From positions 1 through 26,894 of the forward strand of contig DASWHH010000271.1 of the NCBI GenBank assembly GCA_036398295.1: a stretch of 26,894 nucleotides of DNA, read 5' to 3'. A program made the position numbers and the translations under genes. The notes beneath the pieces were generated by a model. It ran no database searches. It saw only the letters and a program-made list of their open reading frames with translations, and was not told the origin of the DNA. Each line of letters starts with the position of its first letter. Position 1 is the stretch's first letter. This document shows positions 165-17,267 of this stretch, piece by piece. Origin of the DNA: a bacterium (GTDB lineage: Bacteria; Zhuqueibacterota; Zhuqueibacteria; Oceanimicrobiales; Oceanimicrobiaceae).

Positions 165-1688
165 GTGCCTCAGACGATTCGACCCAATAACAAATCGGTT
201 TCTGCGAAGGCAACTCCTAGAGTTATCAGCAGCCCCACGGCTTCCATTTCGAAGAAAGCTATTAATAAACTACGATTTTGGACAGCATCGCTCTGGCGCA
301 AGAGCCTGGATCTGTTTAGCTGCTTTCCAATCCGCTACAAATTGAGTTTGATTATTGGCGCCATTGTGATACTGGTGATGACCGCTTTCAGTCTCATCGT
401 CTTGCAGAGCCAAAAGATTGCATTGCAAAACCGCACCACGCAGATGTGCTATGTCCTGGTGCAAAATTTGGCCGAGTCGGTGAAAGGCGATTTGCTGTTA
501 GGAAAAACCGAGAAGGTACGTGAGGCCGTGTATCGCTTACAGAAAAATACTATTGATGGCTTACAGCAGGTTGCCATTTTTAATCACAAAGTCGATGTTG
601 TTGCCGAGTTCATTCAGGGAAGCGATTCCCTGGTCATCGATAATCGTGCAGAGATTTCTCAGTTCACAAAATTTACATCCCGTGAGCGAGAAGACCAGTT
701 TGATTTCTACCATCCGATTGTAACCGAATTGCAGGAAAACAATCAGGTGAAGAGGATCAAACTTGGTACGGCATATATTCGCTTTTCAAAAGAGTCAATT
801 GTCACCCCAATCAACCACGCTCGTAACATCGCTATTGGCACCGCCATGTTCATCATTCTTTTTTCGAGCATCGGCATTCATCTCATCTCAAGGAAAATGG
901 CGAGACAAATTCAAATGTTGTCCAATGGCGCGCGCGCCGTTGGCAGCGGCAATCTCAACGTGCAAATTTCAGTCAGCAGCAAGGATGAACTGGGCTTGCT
1001 GGCGGCGGAGTTCAACAGCATGATTCAGCAGCTCAGGGAGAAAGGGCATATGCAAAAGTTTATGTCCAAGCTCACGGTGGATATGATCAAAGATACCGTG
1101 CGCACCCGTGGCAAGGATCTGAAAGCCACGAAACGTAATGTGGCGGTGTTGTTTTCCGATGTGCGTAACTTCTCTTCTATCTCTGAATTGCTTGCCCCTG
1201 AGGAAATTGTTAAGTTGGTCAATGTCTACTTTGATTTGCAAACGCGCATCATCGAGCAGTATCACGGCATTGTGGACAAATTCATGGGCGATCAGATAAT
1301 GGCGATTTTTCAAGGACGCAACATGGCCGACGGCGTTCTGCGGGCAGCCGTTGAAATTCAGCGCCAGGTTCGTACGCTCAACCAGGAGCGCAGCGGCAAG
1401 GGCAAGGTCACAATGGACATCGGAATTGGCATCAACAACGGGGCCGCCGTGATGGGACACATGGGGTCGGCGAGCAGAATGGACTACACGGTTATCGGCG
1501 ATGTTGTTAACGTGGCCGCCCGCCTTTGTTCCTCTGCCAAAGCCGGACAAATCATCACCTCGCTGGAGTTGGCACACAAAGTGAATGGCTCATACCCTAC
1601 TTCGCGCTTGAAATCGATTGCCGTGAAAGGCCGTTCGCAGGTCATCGAGGTTTGTGAAGTTGATTACGACCGGGATATCCTGCTGTGA
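165..1688 (+). CDS. Membrane-bound class III adenylate cyclase (2 TM, extracytoplasmic domain, HAMP, catalytic domain)
   Basis: Two hydrophobic segments (LSLIIGAIVILVMTAFSLIVL and IAIGTAMFIILFSSIGIHLI), a HAMP-like stretch (GNLNVQISVSSKDELGLLAAEFNSM) and the cyclase motifs FSDVRNFS, VDKFMGDQIMA and DYTVIGDVVNVAARL, plus a C-terminal VKGR. Lys in DKF and Thr in YTVIG indicate ATP specificity (class IIIb). The GTG start has no clear SD, so the start is uncertain. Confidence 0.93.
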   Translation: MPQTIRPNNKSVSAKATPRVISSPTASISKKAINKLRFWTASLWRKSLDLFSCFPIRYKLSLIIGAIVILVMTAFSLIVLQSQKIALQNRTTQMCYVLVQNLAESVKGDLLLGKTEKVREAVYRLQKNTIDGLQQVAIFNHKVDVVAEFIQGSDSLVIDNRAEISQFTKFTSREREDQFDFYHPIVTELQENNQVKRIKLGTAYIRFSKESIVTPINHARNIAIGTAMFIILFSSIGIHLISRKMARQIQMLSNGARAVGSGNLNVQISVSSKDELGLLAAEFNSMIQQLREKGHMQKFMSKLTVDMIKDTVRTRGKDLKATKRNVAVLFSDVRNFSSISELLAPEEIVKLVNVYFDLQTRIIEQYHGIVDKFMGDQIMAIFQGRNMADGVLRAAVEIQRQVRTLNQERSGKGKVTMDIGIGINNGAAVMGHMGSASRMDYTVIGDVVNVAARLCSSAKAGQIITSLELAHKVNGSYPTSRLKSIAVKGRSQVIEVCEVDYDRDILL

Positions 1689-3970
1689 GTGTGCGCCATT
1701 GGAAAAATTGCGTCCGGTCGCTTGCGTGTGTTGTTCCTCTCTTTTTGATTCCCACGTCTGCATCCAGTCAACCTAAGTTTGAGAGCTTCCGACCCGGCGC
1801 CCGGGCCTTGGGATTGGGAGGATCGCTGGTGGTGCAGGCACGCGACGCCTCGGCGATCTTCTGGAATCCGGCCATTCTCTCCGGATTTCGCGATCGCGAG
1901 CTGCTCATCAGCATCAATGATCCCTTTGAGTTCAATTTTGTCGGGATGACGCAATTCGTGCCGCTCTACGGAACCTTGGGCGTTGCCCTGTCTCGTATTC
2001 CGGGGGATGACGACGACGTCGATCGCGGGACTTTTGCCTGGGGGTTCAAAATGTTGGAACGCTTTTCCCTGGGAGCAAACCTCAGCATCGCCAGGCAGGA
2101 AAAGGACTGGTTCGCTCAGGGTAGCGCTGGGATTTTTTTGGGAAATCCGGGAATTGGCGCTTTGGGACGCCGCTGGCGCCAGATTCCGACGTCGCAAGTT
2201 CTCGACCGTTTGAATCTCGGGCTAACCGTTCACAACATTCCTATCGGCAGCAGTCTTTTTGATCCCTCCGCAAATCTCGGGATGAGTTACCTCTTTCCAG
2301 GCCCCGGGCTGTTAATCAACACCGGACATCACATTCGCAATGGAGAAGACACCAGCCACCTTGGCCTCGGATTGGAGCTGTTTCAATCTGTGACCGTTTT
2401 TGGCGGTATCGAGGAGCTGGATTTTGACAAGGCGGCCATCGGCTTGAGCTATACCCACGATAACTTTCTTTTTAATCTCGCCTACTCAGCGGATTCGGAG
2501 CGATTAATCCTTACGTTTGCGGCGCGCATCAGCCCGTCACCGAGCGCACTCGCTAAGCCATATTATGATCGCGGCTATCGTTATCTTAGACGGGGGGACT
2601 TTCGCTCGGCGATACGTGAAATGCGCAAATATCTTTCCTTCGAGCTGGCTGGAACTGAATCCGACACCACCACAAAAGAGTTGCTAAACCGGCTGCAAAC
2701 AAAGGTGGCTCGGGACCAAATTGTGATCGATTCTCTTTATGTTTATGCCAATCGCATGATTGCAAATGGCGAACCCATGCGCGCCACCTTATCGTTGATG
2801 AGGATTCTCGAATTGGACTCCACCAATGTCAAGGCCAGGGAGAAATTGGGCCATCTGAAACCTGCAATCGATAGTTATATAAGTAAATATCTTGCCGACG
2901 GCACGTCGCAGTTTGAAGCGAAGCAATATGCAGAGGCCCGATCTTCCTTTTCTCGGGTGCTGATTCTCGAAAAGAAAAACCAAACGGCGTTGAATTACCT
3001 GAACCTCATCGAACAGCTTTCAGCCGAACTGGGTGACGAACATTTTTATCGGGGCCTGGGTTTTTTCCGGCAAAAGGACTATCTCCGCGCCATGGATGAA
3101 TTCGAGCAGGCGTTGCAATTTAAGCCGGATTTAGCCGAAGCGGAATCCTATCGAAAGCGGGCCCGGGAGAAGTTGATAGAAACCAGAAATCAAATTCAAC
3201 GGCTGCTCACCGCCGGCAGCGACTTAGAGCGAAAAGGACGACACCTTGACGCCACCAACCAGTATGTGGAGGTGTTGCAGCTGGATCCGGACAATGAGAC
3301 CGCGCGCCTGCGGATTGACAACCTGCGGCCCAGGGTAGAATTGTTTATTCAAGGCAAACTTGATGAGGGTGCCACTTTTCTTAAGAACGAAAACTTTGTC
3401 AAAGCGCGGCAGTCATTTTCAACCGTGCTTTCCATCGACCCCAATCACAAAGACGCTAAAAGTTACATGGTGCGCTTGCGGAACGCCATTGGCGATAGAA
3501 TCTCGCAGTACCTGGCTCAAGCCGATGACTACATGCTGCGTGGAGATTGGGCTAATGCCTCCGAATCCTACGCACGGGTTTTAAGCCTGGATCCCCAAAA
3601 CAATCGTGCCAACCAGGGCAAGCTTGAAGCACAAACGCAATCAGAGATCGCTTCCCTGATGACAAGGGGGCAGCAGGAAATTGAGGCGAACAACATTTTG
3701 GAGGGAATCGCCATGTTTGAAAGAGCTCTCAAGAACGATCCGAGTAACGAAAAAACCCGGGCCGCCCTCAAAGCCGCCCGCGATAAGTTGAAAGAAAAAG
3801 TCGAGGCGCTTTTCCTTGAAGGGATCAGCCTTTATACCAATGACCGCTACCAGGACGCTATCAAAAAATGGGAGGAGGTGCTGAGGCTCGACGCCAATCA
3901 CAAAGGCGCGCTCGAATATAAACAGCAGGCGGACGAACGCATCCGGGCTTTGCAGAAATTCAAACGATGA
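1685..3970 (+). CDS. Secreted protein with an N-terminal PorV/UPF0164-like beta-barrel and a long C-terminal TPR array
   Basis: Signal-peptide-like N-terminus (ending ASS|Q) and GARALGLGG...DASAIFWNPA, a motif typical of PorV/FadL-like barrels. Alternating beta-strand pattern to about residue 280, then many TPR-like units (e.g. AMDEFEQALQFKPDLAEA, YARVLSLDPQNNRA, WEEVLRLDANHKGA). The start overlaps the cyclase stop (GTGA). Confidence 0.8.
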   Translation: MSVRHWKNCVRSLACVVPLFLIPTSASSQPKFESFRPGARALGLGGSLVVQARDASAIFWNPAILSGFRDRELLISINDPFEFNFVGMTQFVPLYGTLGVALSRIPGDDDDVDRGTFAWGFKMLERFSLGANLSIARQEKDWFAQGSAGIFLGNPGIGALGRRWRQIPTSQVLDRLNLGLTVHNIPIGSSLFDPSANLGMSYLFPGPGLLINTGHHIRNGEDTSHLGLGLELFQSVTVFGGIEELDFDKAAIGLSYTHDNFLFNLAYSADSERLILTFAARISPSPSALAKPYYDRGYRYLRRGDFRSAIREMRKYLSFELAGTESDTTTKELLNRLQTKVARDQIVIDSLYVYANRMIANGEPMRATLSLMRILELDSTNVKAREKLGHLKPAIDSYISKYLADGTSQFEAKQYAEARSSFSRVLILEKKNQTALNYLNLIEQLSAELGDEHFYRGLGFFRQKDYLRAMDEFEQALQFKPDLAEAESYRKRAREKLIETRNQIQRLLTAGSDLERKGRHLDATNQYVEVLQLDPDNETARLRIDNLRPRVELFIQGKLDEGATFLKNENFVKARQSFSTVLSIDPNHKDAKSYMVRLRNAIGDRISQYLAQADDYMLRGDWANASESYARVLSLDPQNNRANQGKLEAQTQSEIASLMTRGQQEIEANNILEGIAMFERALKNDPSNEKTRAALKAARDKLKEKVEALFLEGISLYTNDRYQDAIKKWEEVLRLDANHKGALEYKQQADERIRALQKFKR

Positions 3971-4359
3971 CTCGACTCAAAGAAATTTATCGCATCCTCA
4001 CCCTTGCTGATAAAATCGCGGTGCTTGTCCTTATCAGTATGAGTGTGGTCAGCGTCACCGTCGCCGGACTCACCCATCAACCCGGGGCGCACGCCCTCAT
4101 GTCGGTTAACGGCAACGCTCCGCTTCGCAAGCCGTTGTACCACGAAGATATCTTCATTTTGAAAGGAGGGGCCGGAACAGCTGTAATAGAAATCAGCGAT
4201 AATTCAATTCATGTTCGTGACTCCACCTGCCCTCAAAAACTGTGTGTCCGCCAGGGACGAATTCGACATGTCGGTGAAATCATCGTCTGCGTTCCCAACA
4301 AAATAACCATCTGGATTGAAGGCCGACGCCCGAACCCCTTCGATGCCATCACCGGCTAA
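3967..4359 (+). CDS. NusG domain II-containing (DUF1312/Lin0431-like, EetA-like) membrane-anchored protein
   Basis: N-terminal TM anchor and the hallmark CPQKLCVRQGRI...GEIIVCVPNKITIWI, ending DAITG. ATGA overlap with the previous stop. Confidence 0.85.
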   Translation: MTRLKEIYRILTLADKIAVLVLISMSVVSVTVAGLTHQPGAHALMSVNGNAPLRKPLYHEDIFILKGGAGTAVIEISDNSIHVRDSTCPQKLCVRQGRIRHVGEIIVCVPNKITIWIEGRRPNPFDAITG

Positions 4360-4888
4360 GCCCAGCCCGGGAGCGCTGCGCGTCGGCTTGTCCCGTTTGG
4401 CGCGTATGGCCGTATTGGTTGCGGCTGGTTCTGTCCTCTTCCTGTTCGAATCCGCTATCCCAAGGCCGCTGCCTTGGCTAAAACCCGGGCTCTCCAACCT
4501 GGTTTCGTTAGTGGCCCTTTATCTTTACGGTTTTCGAGCGGCTTTTTTGATCATGCTCCTGCGCGTCTTGATCGGCGCGTTTGTCCTCGGAACCCTCTTT
4601 AACCCGGCATTCGTTTTTGCCCTGGGCGGCGGAGTAGTATCTGTAGCGGTGATGGCATCTCTTCATGCCTGCGCCCGCAACAAATTCAGCGTTATCGGCA
4701 TCAGCTTGATCGGCGCTTTCTCTCACAATTTGACCCAACTTGTGCTTGCGGCGGTGCTGGTTATCAACAGCACACAGGTGTTTTACCTCGCACCCTTGAT
4801 GCTACTATCCTCACTTTTTTCTGGATTTTTAGTTGGGATTTTTGCACATTACACTATTCAGAAAGCAGTTAGCTGGCATTTGACCTGA
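4343..4888 (+). CDS. Gx transporter family protein (so-called heptaprenyl diphosphate synthase component I; ECF S-component-like, EetB-like)
   Basis: LFLFESAIPRPLPWLKPGLSNLVSL, FVFALGGG and SVIGISLIGAFSHNLTQL match the family pattern, and the protein is highly hydrophobic. It follows the NusG-II gene as is usual for this pair. I chose ATG 4343 over TTG 4316, but the start is uncertain. Confidence 0.85.
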   Translation: MPSPAKPSPGALRVGLSRLARMAVLVAAGSVLFLFESAIPRPLPWLKPGLSNLVSLVALYLYGFRAAFLIMLLRVLIGAFVLGTLFNPAFVFALGGGVVSVAVMASLHACARNKFSVIGISLIGAFSHNLTQLVLAAVLVINSTQVFYLAPLMLLSSLFSGFLVGIFAHYTIQKAVSWHLT

Positions 4889-5038
4889 GAGATTTGTGGA
4901 CCTACCCGCCAAACTGAACCAATTTGATGCGGAATTTCTACCCGCCCAGGATAGTATTTCAAGTTAACAAATGGAACTGCTTACTGTTTGCGACGTTTAG
5001 ATTTAGAGCTGTTTTCAAAAACAATTTCTCCTCATCGT

Positions 5039-7171
5039 ATGAAATATAGATTTATCGTAGGCCTCCTTTCAGTGTTGCTATTCACTTCGTGCGGCGCCTA
5101 CTTCAACACCTTCCACAATACCAAGAAATACTTCAACGAGGCCAGGAAAGAGCGTGAGAAGCGCCAGGGCGACACACCCTCTGCCAATGAGCAGGCCAAG
5201 TATAACCAAACCATCGAAAAAGCTTCTAAGATTCTGGAGCTGTACTCCGAAAGCAAGTACGTTGACGATGCCGTGATGATTTTAGGCGAGTGTTTTTACT
5301 ACAAAGGCGAGTATGTCAAAGCCGAACGGAAATTTGAAGAGTTGATCACGTATTTTCCTACTAGCGAATATTTCAACCGAGCGCAGCTGTGGCTGGCGCG
5401 CACCAAAATTAAGATGCAGGATTACCTGGGCGCGCGTTTCCTTCTGCAGGAATTTGTCAGCAATGCGAGTGTCAAAAAGGAATTACGAGATGAAGGACAA
5501 TTCTATCTGGGTGAAATTCAATTCGAGCAGGAGTACTTTTTGGAAGCGGAACAGGAGTACCGAAAGGCCGCTGAAGGCGCAAACGACAAAATTTTGAAAG
5601 CGCGCATCTATTTCCAGATGGGAGCGAGCCAGATAAAAATCGGTGATTTTCCGCAAGCAGTGCAGAGCTTGCGCAAGGCGATCGCGCATAGCTCCGACAA
5701 ACGATTCACATTTGACGCTGAATTGAGATTGGCTACGGCCATGAAGTTGGCAGGTGACTATCAGGGCGCAAAGCAGTTACTAGCGGAACTGCTCGAAGAC
5801 CTCACCTTTAAAGATCAACACGGTCTTGTCAAATTGGAGGTTGCCGATTGCCTTTACCTTGAGGGGAGATCTCTCTACGAAAAATTAAGCGTTGCCAACG
5901 TTGAGCATCTCGGCAAAATCGAACAGGCCCTGGATGAGTATAAGAAAATCGCGCTCGAATACAAAAAGACGGAGGTGGCCGCCGAAGCCTACTTTGAAGT
6001 TGCCAAAATTTATGAGGAAGATTACGGGGACTTTGCCAGCGCCAAGGACTACTACGAAAAGGTGAAGCTCGAATCGACCAAGTCGGAGTGTGTGCCGCTA
6101 TCCATTCAAAAGGCCAAAGACCTCGCTGACTTGCTTCGTCTCAAGTCGCTGGTTAAAAAATCGCAGGGCACTCAGCTTGACAAGAAGAAGAGCGGTCAGA
6201 GCCAGTTGTCGGACCTCGAGTTGCTGTTGATGGAACACGGCGTTCATCCCGAGCTGCGATTTATACAGAAAAAGAAGAAACTCGACCAGCAGCTGCAGGC
6301 CAATCTGCCGCAGCCGCAGAGTAACCACTCTGATGCCAAAAGCGCCAACGGCTCACAGAATCAGGATCTCGATGCCTTGGTAACCAACAAGCTGCAATTG
6401 GCAGAGGTTTACTTGTTTCAATTTGCCAAAATCGACTCGGCGATGTTGGAGTACAATGAAGTCATCGAACTTTTTCCCAACCATGCCGGCTGTGCCAAGG
6501 CTCTGTTTTCAAACGCACTGATTTACGAGAATGAATATGGCAACAAATTTAAGACCGATTCTTTGTTGTATGTATTGATCGAGCGTTTTCCCGATTCGTA
6601 CCAGGCGCAGGAAGCGCGAAAAATCCTGGGGCTGCCCATGGCGGTGAATCGCAACGAGCTGGCTGTCGATATGTACAAAAACGCCGAGAAGATGCTGTTC
6701 ACCTCAAGCAGTGTTGCTCGTGCGGTTGAAGAGTTTAGCAAGCTGAAGGAGACATTTCCGGGTTCGGAATATGCCCCCAAAGCATTGTTTGCCCTGGGGT
6801 GGGTTTATGAAAGGATGACTCATGAAAATGATAAAGCCCTTGCGGCCTATCGTGAAATCATCGAGAAGTATCCGAACTCCGATTACTCGAGGACGGTCAA
6901 GATAAAATTGGATGCGGTTGAAAAAGCCGCCAAGCAAGCCGAACAGGAGAAGCAGCCGGCCGCACCCCAGCAGGTAGCAACCGAGAACGGGGAGCAAGTA
7001 TCTCCAGAATTGGTCTCGGACAAAACGGATACAACGGCTGCAGCACCAATGAAGCTTTCCAGTACCGAAGCCGCCGAGGATTCGCTACGCGCACAGCTGG
7101 AAAAAATCAACAAGGAGAGAATCGAAGCGGTCGATGAAAAAGTCAGTAAAGAGAAGAAACCGACGCCATAA
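5039..7171 (+). CDS. Large TPR lipoprotein (BamD/YfiO-like repeats; SprE/PorW-like architecture)
   Basis: ATG at 5039 gives a signal peptide II (MKYRFIVGLLSVLLFTS-C) followed by CGAYFNTFHNTKKYF. Repeated TPR units ending F/Y-P-x-S (FPTSEY, FPDSYQ, FPGSEY, YPNSDY) and a low-complexity charged tail. Confidence 0.8.
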   Translation: MKYRFIVGLLSVLLFTSCGAYFNTFHNTKKYFNEARKEREKRQGDTPSANEQAKYNQTIEKASKILELYSESKYVDDAVMILGECFYYKGEYVKAERKFEELITYFPTSEYFNRAQLWLARTKIKMQDYLGARFLLQEFVSNASVKKELRDEGQFYLGEIQFEQEYFLEAEQEYRKAAEGANDKILKARIYFQMGASQIKIGDFPQAVQSLRKAIAHSSDKRFTFDAELRLATAMKLAGDYQGAKQLLAELLEDLTFKDQHGLVKLEVADCLYLEGRSLYEKLSVANVEHLGKIEQALDEYKKIALEYKKTEVAAEAYFEVAKIYEEDYGDFASAKDYYEKVKLESTKSECVPLSIQKAKDLADLLRLKSLVKKSQGTQLDKKKSGQSQLSDLELLLMEHGVHPELRFIQKKKKLDQQLQANLPQPQSNHSDAKSANGSQNQDLDALVTNKLQLAEVYLFQFAKIDSAMLEYNEVIELFPNHAGCAKALFSNALIYENEYGNKFKTDSLLYVLIERFPDSYQAQEARKILGLPMAVNRNELAVDMYKNAEKMLFTSSSVARAVEEFSKLKETFPGSEYAPKALFALGWVYERMTHENDKALAAYREIIEKYPNSDYSRTVKIKLDAVEKAAKQAEQEKQPAAPQQVATENGEQVSPELVSDKTDTTAAAPMKLSSTEAAEDSLRAQLEKINKERIEAVDEKVSKEKKPTP

Positions 7172-16466: not shown

Positions 16467-17267
16467 GTGGCCTTTCTAAAAGACATAACTTTAGGTCAGT
16501 ATTTTCCAGGAGACTCGTTTCTCCATCGTCTGGATCCGCGCAGCAAGCTCTTGGCGAGTCTGGCTCTCATGACCAGCCTGTTGATTTCGACAAAATTGAG
16601 CCTGATCTTGCTGCAGTCCGCCGCGGTGCTGGTGACGATTTGGTTGACGAAGATTCCAATGACCATGATCGCCAAGAGCCTGAAATGGTTTCTATGGCTT
16701 TTCCTGATCACATTTGCGATTCATGTTTTAGAAGTAAGCATCGGTTCCGTTTTTCCGTTTTTGAGTTTTGGTGTCCGTGCAGCGGGAATCATGAACGGAG
16801 CAATTTATACACTGCGACTGGGACTCTTGATCGTCACGGCGTCGTTGTTGACGTTGACCACCTCGCCCATCGAATTGACCGACAGCCTCGAACGGCTGTT
16901 TTCGCCGTTGAAGCGATTGAGAGTGCCCGTGCATGAACTGGCTCTGATGATGACGCTGTCACTGCGATTTATACCGATTCTAATTCGTGAGGCCGAGCGC
17001 ATTAAGAACGCCCAGTTGTCGCGAGGGGCATCGCTGGAAGGCAACCTCCTGCAACGAATTCGCAACCTGGTTCCGATGTTGCTGCCTTTGTTTATCTCGG
17101 CCATTCGCCGGGCGGACGACCTGGCGGTGGCAATGGAGGCGCGCTGCTACGCTGGTGGTGAAGGGCGGACCTGCTTTCATCGGTTTGCGTTTGGCGTCGG
17201 CGATGTCGGCTTACTGCTGTTTTCGGGTGCCTGGTTCTTTGGAATTTTAGTTGTTAATTACGGTTAG
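16467..17267 (+). CDS. ecfT: Energy-coupling factor transporter transmembrane component T
   Basis: ITLGQYFPGDSFLHRLDPRSKL, TTSPIELTDSLE, LSLRFIPIL and the two X-R-X coupling motifs AQLSRGA and AMEARCY. Confidence 0.95.
   Translation: MAFLKDITLGQYFPGDSFLHRLDPRSKLLASLALMTSLLISTKLSLILLQSAAVLVTIWLTKIPMTMIAKSLKWFLWLFLITFAIHVLEVSIGSVFPFLSFGVRAAGIMNGAIYTLRLGLLIVTASLLTLTTSPIELTDSLERLFSPLKRLRVPVHELALMMTLSLRFIPILIREAERIKNAQLSRGASLEGNLLQRIRNLVPMLLPLFISAIRRADDLAVAMEARCYAGGEGRTCFHRFAFGVGDVGLLLFSGAWFFGILVVNYG

Follow-up and report, generated by a model that had tools for sequence, protein, structure and literature searches.

EetA and EetB in a diderm bacterium of the Zhuqueibacterota: a gene pair with a probable role in flavin export through a shared ECF module

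Contig DASWHH010000271.1 (GenBank assembly GCA_036398295.1) comes from a metagenome-assembled genome (MAG) of the bacterial phylum Zhuqueibacterota; its positions 1 to 26,894, a 26.9-kb stretch, are referred to here as the window. The window carries two overlapping genes, eetA and eetB, whose products belong to the families of the Listeria flavin exporter. The source MAG (G000) has a size of 3.25 Mb in 678 contigs and is about 75% complete. An initial annotation, made from the sequence alone, described overlapping genes for a NusG-domain-II protein and a Gx transporter; both are present at this place and both score above the family cut-offs. EetA matches PF07009 with 80.1 bits (gathering cut-off 29.6), and EetB matches PF07456 with 139.6 bits (E 1e-40; gathering cut-off 30) over profile positions 1-146 of 147. 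EetB is defined as PF07456 and EetA as PF07009 by Rivera-Lugo et al. (2023, mBio, PMC9973259), and membership rests on these Pfam definitions; NCBIfam contains no model for EetA or EetB. In Listeria, EetB is an FAD-binding exporter subunit that resembles the S-components of energy-coupling factor (ECF) transporters, and eetB, fmnA and ecfA/A' are all needed for ApbE-dependent flavinylation of PplA (PMC9973259). The annotation had described EetB as a Gx/ECF-S-like exporter of flavin that works with FmnA, and EetA as its DUF1312 neighbour; the same paper bears this out.

EetB is predicted to fold as an ECF S-component, with its closest match in the riboflavin-specific S-component RibU. The AlphaFold2 (AF2) model (pLDDT 91.4) has six helices, and its ten best PDB matches in Foldseek are all ECF-S proteins; RibU ranks first, with TM-scores of 0.66-0.75. 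RibU is also the sole PDB match of the EetB sequence profile (3P5N, E 0.005). The S-component fold on which the annotation's proposal depended is therefore present. RibU (3P5N, 5KBW) is like EetB in its six-helix fold and, if the function proposed below is right, in its flavin ligand class and its use of a shared ECF module; it differs in being an importer and in belonging to another Pfam family, with 13-16% identity to EetB. Residues E36, P40, P42, P44, G49, G83, M104, S121, G124, N129, Q132, P151 and G161 of EetB are invariant and common to ApbE-linked members of the family. Helix 1 contains a conserved small-xxx-small motif (A23-A27), which hints at docking on EcfT.

EetA starts with a short helix, which is followed by a single membrane-spanning helix (about residues 13-35) and a DUF1312/NusG-II beta-barrel (AF2 pLDDT 92). 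From the positive-inside rule, a periplasmic location of the barrel is predicted. The best fold match of the model is 4ESN from Ruminococcus gnavus (TM-score 0.90, root-mean-square deviation 1.5 A), which is also matched by the EetA profile (E 3e-21). Six residues are invariant in 36 EetA sequences (D15, C88, C93, C108, P110 and N111), and the three cysteines form the pattern CPxKxC...CxPN. The same cysteines are found in 4ESN (CPxxxC...CxPN), whereas Lin0431 of Listeria innocua (3LD7) lacks the first two cysteine positions of the triad. Unlike EetA, the solved constructs of DUF1312 proteins (4ESN, 3LD7/2KPP for Lin0431, and 4OBI for EF3258) and of NusG domain II from Aquifex (1M1G) have no membrane anchor.

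EetA and EetB behave as one unit. Of the 34 stand-alone loci in the phylum, 33 have the two genes side by side, and same-family genomes without the pair have lost both together. In alignments, the N-termini of close homologues (MPSP...) coincide with the in-frame ATG of eetB at 4343; the two genes consequently overlap by 17 nt, or by 44 nt if the TTG codon further upstream is the start. Coordinates of all features are collected in Table 1.

Table 1. Location of the eetAB pair, its neighbours, candidate partners and related loci. Window positions are given as plain numbers; other features are listed by contig or locus.
Feature	Location	Strand	Remarks
eetA	3967..4359	+	130 aa; PF07009 NusG_II/DUF1312, E 1.6e-22
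eetB	4343..4888	+	181 aa; six-helix ECF S-component-like, Gx transporter family; alternative TTG start 4316
HAMP-adenylate/guanylate cyclase gene	165..1688	+	PF00211, PF00672; first in overlap-chained unit; judged a co-transcribed neighbour, not part of the transporter
Barrel/TPR gene	1685..3970	+	secreted protein, PorV-like N-terminus and TPR repeats; stop overlaps eetA start (ATGA); positional neighbour
TPR lipoprotein gene	4988..7171	+	PorW/SprE-, BamD- and YbgF-like; 100 nt 3' of eetB; positional neighbour
ecfT	16467..17267	+	PF02361, E 6.7e-43; beside truA; physically unlinked to eetAB
Probable ecfA	C559:1-663		cut by contig end
Probable ecfA'	C118:1500-2369
ApbE gene, lipoprotein	C337:3091-4495
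ApbE gene, no signal peptide	C365:3723-4691
Candidate FMN_bind/FTR1 cluster	C493:1-5173		four genes
Second module	L064:7589-12582 (G035:C118)		eetA and EetB::short-EcfT fusion
Second module	L078:5807-7389 (G063:C45)		eetA and EetB::short-EcfT fusion
Remnant-bearing gap	L076:6699-7156 (G013:C9)		decayed eetB 3' piece
Remnant-bearing gap	L074:7762-7923 (G001:C8)		decayed eetB 3' piece
eetAB near rib operon	L063:7476-15750 (G035:C119)

The host is a diderm of the FCB group, which agrees with the annotation's impression of an apparently diderm genome. BamD/YfiO-, PorV- and PorW/SprE-like matches are found in the window, a type IX secretion system (T9SS) sorting domain is present elsewhere in the genome, and the EetB homologues and the EetB tree indicate kinship with the Calditrichaceae. 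Among EetB homologues, those of Caldithrix/Calditrichota MAGs are the closest (68-77% identity), followed by KSB1; this evidence points to the Calditrichota as the phylum of the host. In the same-family genome G056, the locus is identical to a record placed in the Calditrichaceae.

ECF-T proteins are defined by two X-R-X motifs in their coupling helices. Both are present in the window's EcfT (SRG at 185-187 and ARC at 224-226), and the EcfT gene to which the annotation had pointed is confirmed as such. It is the only PF02361 match in the MAG, and a 97%-complete genome of the same genus also has one. Two ATPase genes on other contigs are, judged by sequence, the probable EcfA and EcfA'. The best family of the first (C559) is TIGR04520, with 243.7 bits against a cut-off of 315; the best family of the second (C118 of the source genome) is TIGR04521, with 292.2 bits against a cut-off of 330. 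These families are named ECF_ATPase_1 and ECF_ATPase_2. The ECF module is dispersed: ecfT is in the window, the probable ecfA and ecfA' each lie on a different contig elsewhere in the genome, and no two of the three are adjacent. Further S-components are encoded on C612 (BioY) and C430 (an ECF_trnsprt member). A single EcfT, two probable ECF ATPases and dispersed S-components point to a group II ECF system, of which EetB could be one of the S-components.

The genome also encodes proteins that could receive exported flavin. Profile searches of the contigs detect two ApbE genes. One product has a lipoprotein signal with the lipobox LLGC (...ILLGC). Directly 5' of its gene is one for a polyprenyl synthetase. 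The second ApbE lacks a signal peptide, and its gene is found among those for glycosyltransferases. A membrane-anchored FMN_bind protein on C493 contains the acceptor-type motif DIHNITGAT and adjoins a cytochrome c-FTR1 gene. Four genes make up this stretch of C493: they encode a secreted 432-aa protein, the anchored FMN_bind protein (TGAT), a 181-aa membrane protein and the cytochrome c-FTR1 fusion. The cluster may encode a flavinylated reductase system for iron uptake, and no other client of ApbE in the genome is as likely; FMN-binding proteins linked to FTR1 are a published class of flavinylation targets (PMC8238504). ApbE and a candidate flavinylated substrate, both of which a flavin exporter of this type calls for, thus occur in the genome. 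The annotation had suggested that the pair might serve targets encoded elsewhere, for example Rnf or Nqr. At least one plausible client is indeed encoded elsewhere, but it is not Rnf/Nqr: no RnfD/NqrB (PF03116) match is found in the source genome or in its three EetB-bearing family relatives.

On this basis, the pair probably uses the shared ECF module to export FAD, which would supply ApbE in the periplasm; this reading is held with moderate confidence. EetB would bind cytosolic FAD and dock on the single EcfT-EcfA-EcfA' module, which would energise it. FAD would then be carried across the inner membrane and released at the periplasmic face. EetA would act as a single-span accessory whose periplasmic DUF1312 barrel probably helps FAD to be released or passed on at the outer side of the membrane. 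The lipoprotein ApbE could then covalently flavinylate periplasmic clients such as the FTR1-linked FMN-binding protein.

Several observations weigh against this reading. The main difficulty is the ECF-T component. Export in Listeria needs a dedicated EcfT paralogue, FmnA, and the housekeeping EcfT apparently cannot substitute for it; an FmnA-type paralogue is found neither here nor in nearly all relatives. Searches of the 75%-complete source genome by tblastn, with EcfT and with the T domains of the fusions described below, recover only the window's ecfT and no second EcfT-like gene. Two genomes, G010 (99% complete) and G047 (94%), contain EetB and have no detectable PF02361 match; an assembly gap would account for this, as would an EetB that is able to work without a canonical EcfT. 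Both ATPases score below their family cut-offs, and one gene is truncated by a contig end. Linkage is also lacking. Family profile searches detect no apbE or FMN_bind gene in the window, and none of apbE, FMN_bind, ecfT or a close ecfA lies within about 8 kb of the pair in the 34 stand-alone loci. Finally, ApbE is found in 26 and Rnf/Nqr in 20 of the 28 phylum genomes that do not have EetB.

These counts come from family profile matches in a sample of 81 genomes of the phylum. EetB (PF07456) is found in 53 of them, EcfT (PF02361) in 77, ApbE (PF02424) in 79, RnfD/NqrB in 64 and RibH (PF00885) in 72, including the same-genus genome. ApbE occurs in all 53 genomes that have EetB. Since ApbE and Rnf/Nqr are kept in genomes without EetB, EetB is not the sole route of FAD to the periplasm in the phylum; it is dispensable, and periplasmic flavinylation there does not require it. 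Rnf/Nqr was considered as a client and rejected, as there is no phylum-wide association: both are present in 44 genomes, EetB alone in 9, Rnf/Nqr alone in 20 and neither in 8. Within family f1, to which the source genome belongs, the four EetB-bearing genomes (G000, G022, G056 and G068) have no PF03116 match, and all six genomes without EetB (G001, G013, G025, G048, G050 and G075) have PF03116 with an adjacent ApbE. These kin are not independent, and the inversion may reflect one split.

EetB is tied to flavinylation in this lineage by a second, paralogous module. In addition to the stand-alone pair, G035 and G063 contain an eetA gene followed by a gene for a 396-404-aa EetB::EcfT-like fusion. 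The module continues with two genes without a family match (152 and 376 aa), ApbE and an RnfG-like FMN_bind gene; it is this position beside ApbE and FMN_bind that makes the connection. The EcfT-like half of the fusion covers only profile positions 2-157 of 216 and does not contain the X-R-X ATPase-docking motifs. The EetB half has the same signature residues as EetB of the window, and sixteen invariant EetB columns are common to the two ApbE-adjacent fusions and an ApbE-adjacent eetB of the Eubacteriales. In the EetB tree, the fusion domain branches inside the stand-alone diversity of the phylum with weak support (82/66); the root of this tree is arbitrary, and four of its rows (L057, L058, L082 and L089) represent an overlapping frame, have long branches and carry no inference.

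The existence of this second module can be read in another way. EetB may be an S-component for a different small molecule, or may work in the other direction, in uptake of flavin or another vitamin, with ApbE served by the fusion paralogue or by an unrelated exporter. The presence of both forms in G035 and G063 fits such a functional divergence. However, the identity of the signature residues in the stand-alone protein, the ApbE-linked fusion and the ApbE-adjacent Eubacteriales member argues against this reading, as does the placement of the fusion domain within the stand-alone diversity and not in a deep separate lineage, weakly supported as that placement is. In none of 34 loci is a flavinylation gene linked to the pair, and co-occurrence gives no signal, as the presence of EetB does not follow that of Rnf/Nqr and almost all genomes have ApbE; both points suit another substrate or direction. 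That the best structural match, RibU, is an importer suits uptake; on the other hand, Listeria EetB neither imports flavin nor substitutes for RibU, and the relatives of the source genome synthesise riboflavin. Taken together, another substrate or direction is unlikely, although it is the strongest competitor to FAD export.

The use of EetB as a marker of flavin auxotrophy or import was also considered and rejected, as RibH is present in 72 of the 81 genomes and in all nine family relatives. The wide occurrence of RibH indicates that cytosolic flavin is made and not imported. The source MAG, at 75% completeness, has no RibH match itself; given the distribution of RibH in the phylum and in the nine relatives, this is probably an assembly gap.

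EetA and EetB could instead be membrane components of electron transfer, or of some other non-transport function, that do not rely on the ECF module; the original model of 2018 and that for L. plantarum are of this kind. Work in L. plantarum proposed that electrons flow through EetA (PMC9888254). The invariant cysteine triad of EetA could be redox-active or metal-binding, and G010 and G047, with EetB and no detectable EcfT, would be accommodated. EetB, however, has the full ECF-S fold and no motif typical of electron-carrier cofactor binding. Clean deletions in Listeria show that extracellular electron transfer does not need eetA, and they place the action of eetB in FAD export and flavinylation. 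In addition, family profile searches of the window detect no ndh2, pplA or dmk near eetAB. A non-transport role is improbable.

The annotation placed the pair behind a cyclase gene and a barrel-TPR gene, with no apbE or FMN-binding genes nearby, and this description holds for the window. Overlaps of 4 nt (ATGA/GTGA) chain the cyclase gene, the barrel/TPR gene and eetA, and the TPR lipoprotein gene is followed by pyrK, pyrD and cdsA. A scan for promoters and terminators gave counts at chance level, with no terminator 3' of eetB. The order cyclase, barrel/TPR, eetA, eetB, TPR lipoprotein, pyrK, pyrD, cdsA is kept in nine families (f1, f4, f5, f8, f10, f11, f13, f14 and f18), also in cases with a barrel/TPR identity of only 23-28%. 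Both the overlaps and this conservation could indicate that eetAB is a working part of an envelope operon, which might pass flavin or another molecule across the outer membrane.

This is very improbable in light of the genomes that lack the pair. In five same-family genomes without eetAB (94-99% complete), the cyclase, barrel/TPR, TPR lipoprotein, pyrK, pyrD and cdsA genes are all present and in order. Two of the five have decayed 3' remnants of eetB in the gap between the barrel/TPR and TPR lipoprotein genes; one corresponds to residues 136-169 (59% identity over 34 aa) and the other to residues 157-174 (61% over 18 aa). Remnants between intact neighbours are explained by deletion of the pair from its ancestral position, after which the envelope genes persisted without it. 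Seven further families (f9, f12, f15, f16, f19, f20 and f21) have the pair in unrelated housekeeping contexts, for example cobA-thi4-thiE-pta-GT9. Because the neighbours survive without eetAB and the pair is found elsewhere in other contexts, its place beside the cyclase and TPR genes is an inherited one, without functional coupling. The slimmest chance of all goes to the idea that eetAB, sited between the genes for the PorV-like barrel/TPR protein and the PorW-like lipoprotein and co-translated with the membrane cyclase, takes flavin or another cofactor over the inner membrane as part of a regulated pathway that continues through the periplasm and across the outer membrane, with the housekeeping EcfT as its partner; if true, the direction of export would be set by the S-component and EetA alone.

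The pair, for which FAD export is the probable role, resembles the EetB-FmnA-EcfA-EcfA' system of Listeria monocytogenes, with EetA, in several respects. Both have the same Pfam families, the same eetA-eetB order, overlapping genes and an ECF-S fold; in both, shared ATPases, which are only probable ones in the source genome, are encoded elsewhere, and ApbE and FMN-binding clients are present in the genome. The window's pair differs from the Listeria system in the following ways. Firstly, its host is diderm, so delivery would be to the periplasm. Secondly, it has no apbE, pplA, ndh2 or dmk nearby and is embedded in the cyclase/TPR envelope operon. Thirdly, no FmnA-type second ECF-T is found in the genome, in which the only EcfT is the housekeeping protein encoded beside truA.

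The same need for periplasmic FAD in a diderm would be served by Bfe of Shewanella, a MATE-type FAD exporter of Gram-negative bacteria; the discussion of PMC9973259 alludes to such exporters. Bfe differs from EetB in protein family and in energy source, and is not known to be co-inherited with an EetA-like partner.

Separation of eetB from apbE, its occurrence in diderm phyla and the function of the family were already known in 2023. Among 4,214 genomes with eetB, the gene is beside apbE in 2,169 and beside an ECF-T gene in 291, and EetA (PF07009) adjoins it in 3,328; the set covers the diderm phyla Bacteroidota, Spirochaetota and Thermotogota (PMC9973259). Homologues of EetB are also already named Gx transporter family proteins in public records. 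The locus is therefore, at the level of annotation, a solid further instance of a system that is already in the literature and not a new kind; what it adds is the single-EcfT setting and a natural deletion series.

How Gram-negative bacteria supply periplasmic ApbE with FAD is understood only in part. Here, a diderm phylum carries a Listeria-type EetA/EetB pair which, if it runs, would have to do so on a single shared EcfT with no FmnA-type partner, and which has been deleted repeatedly while ApbE and Nqr/Rnf persist. Genomes with and without the pair provide a natural comparison set for two questions: what needs EetAB, and whether a dedicated ECF-T is required for export.

A loose flavin-related neighbourhood is seen in some of the other contexts of the pair. 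In f19, f20 and part of f12, a distance of about 3.7 kb separates the stand-alone eetAB from a ribD-ribE-ribBA-ribH operon, and the distance to ribH is about 7 kb. The interval between pair and operon contains two genes on the opposite strand, for a DUF116 protein and a ribonucleotide reductase. This arrangement is based on the G035 locus in Table 1 and, by coordinates, on G037, G055, G059, G069 and G021.

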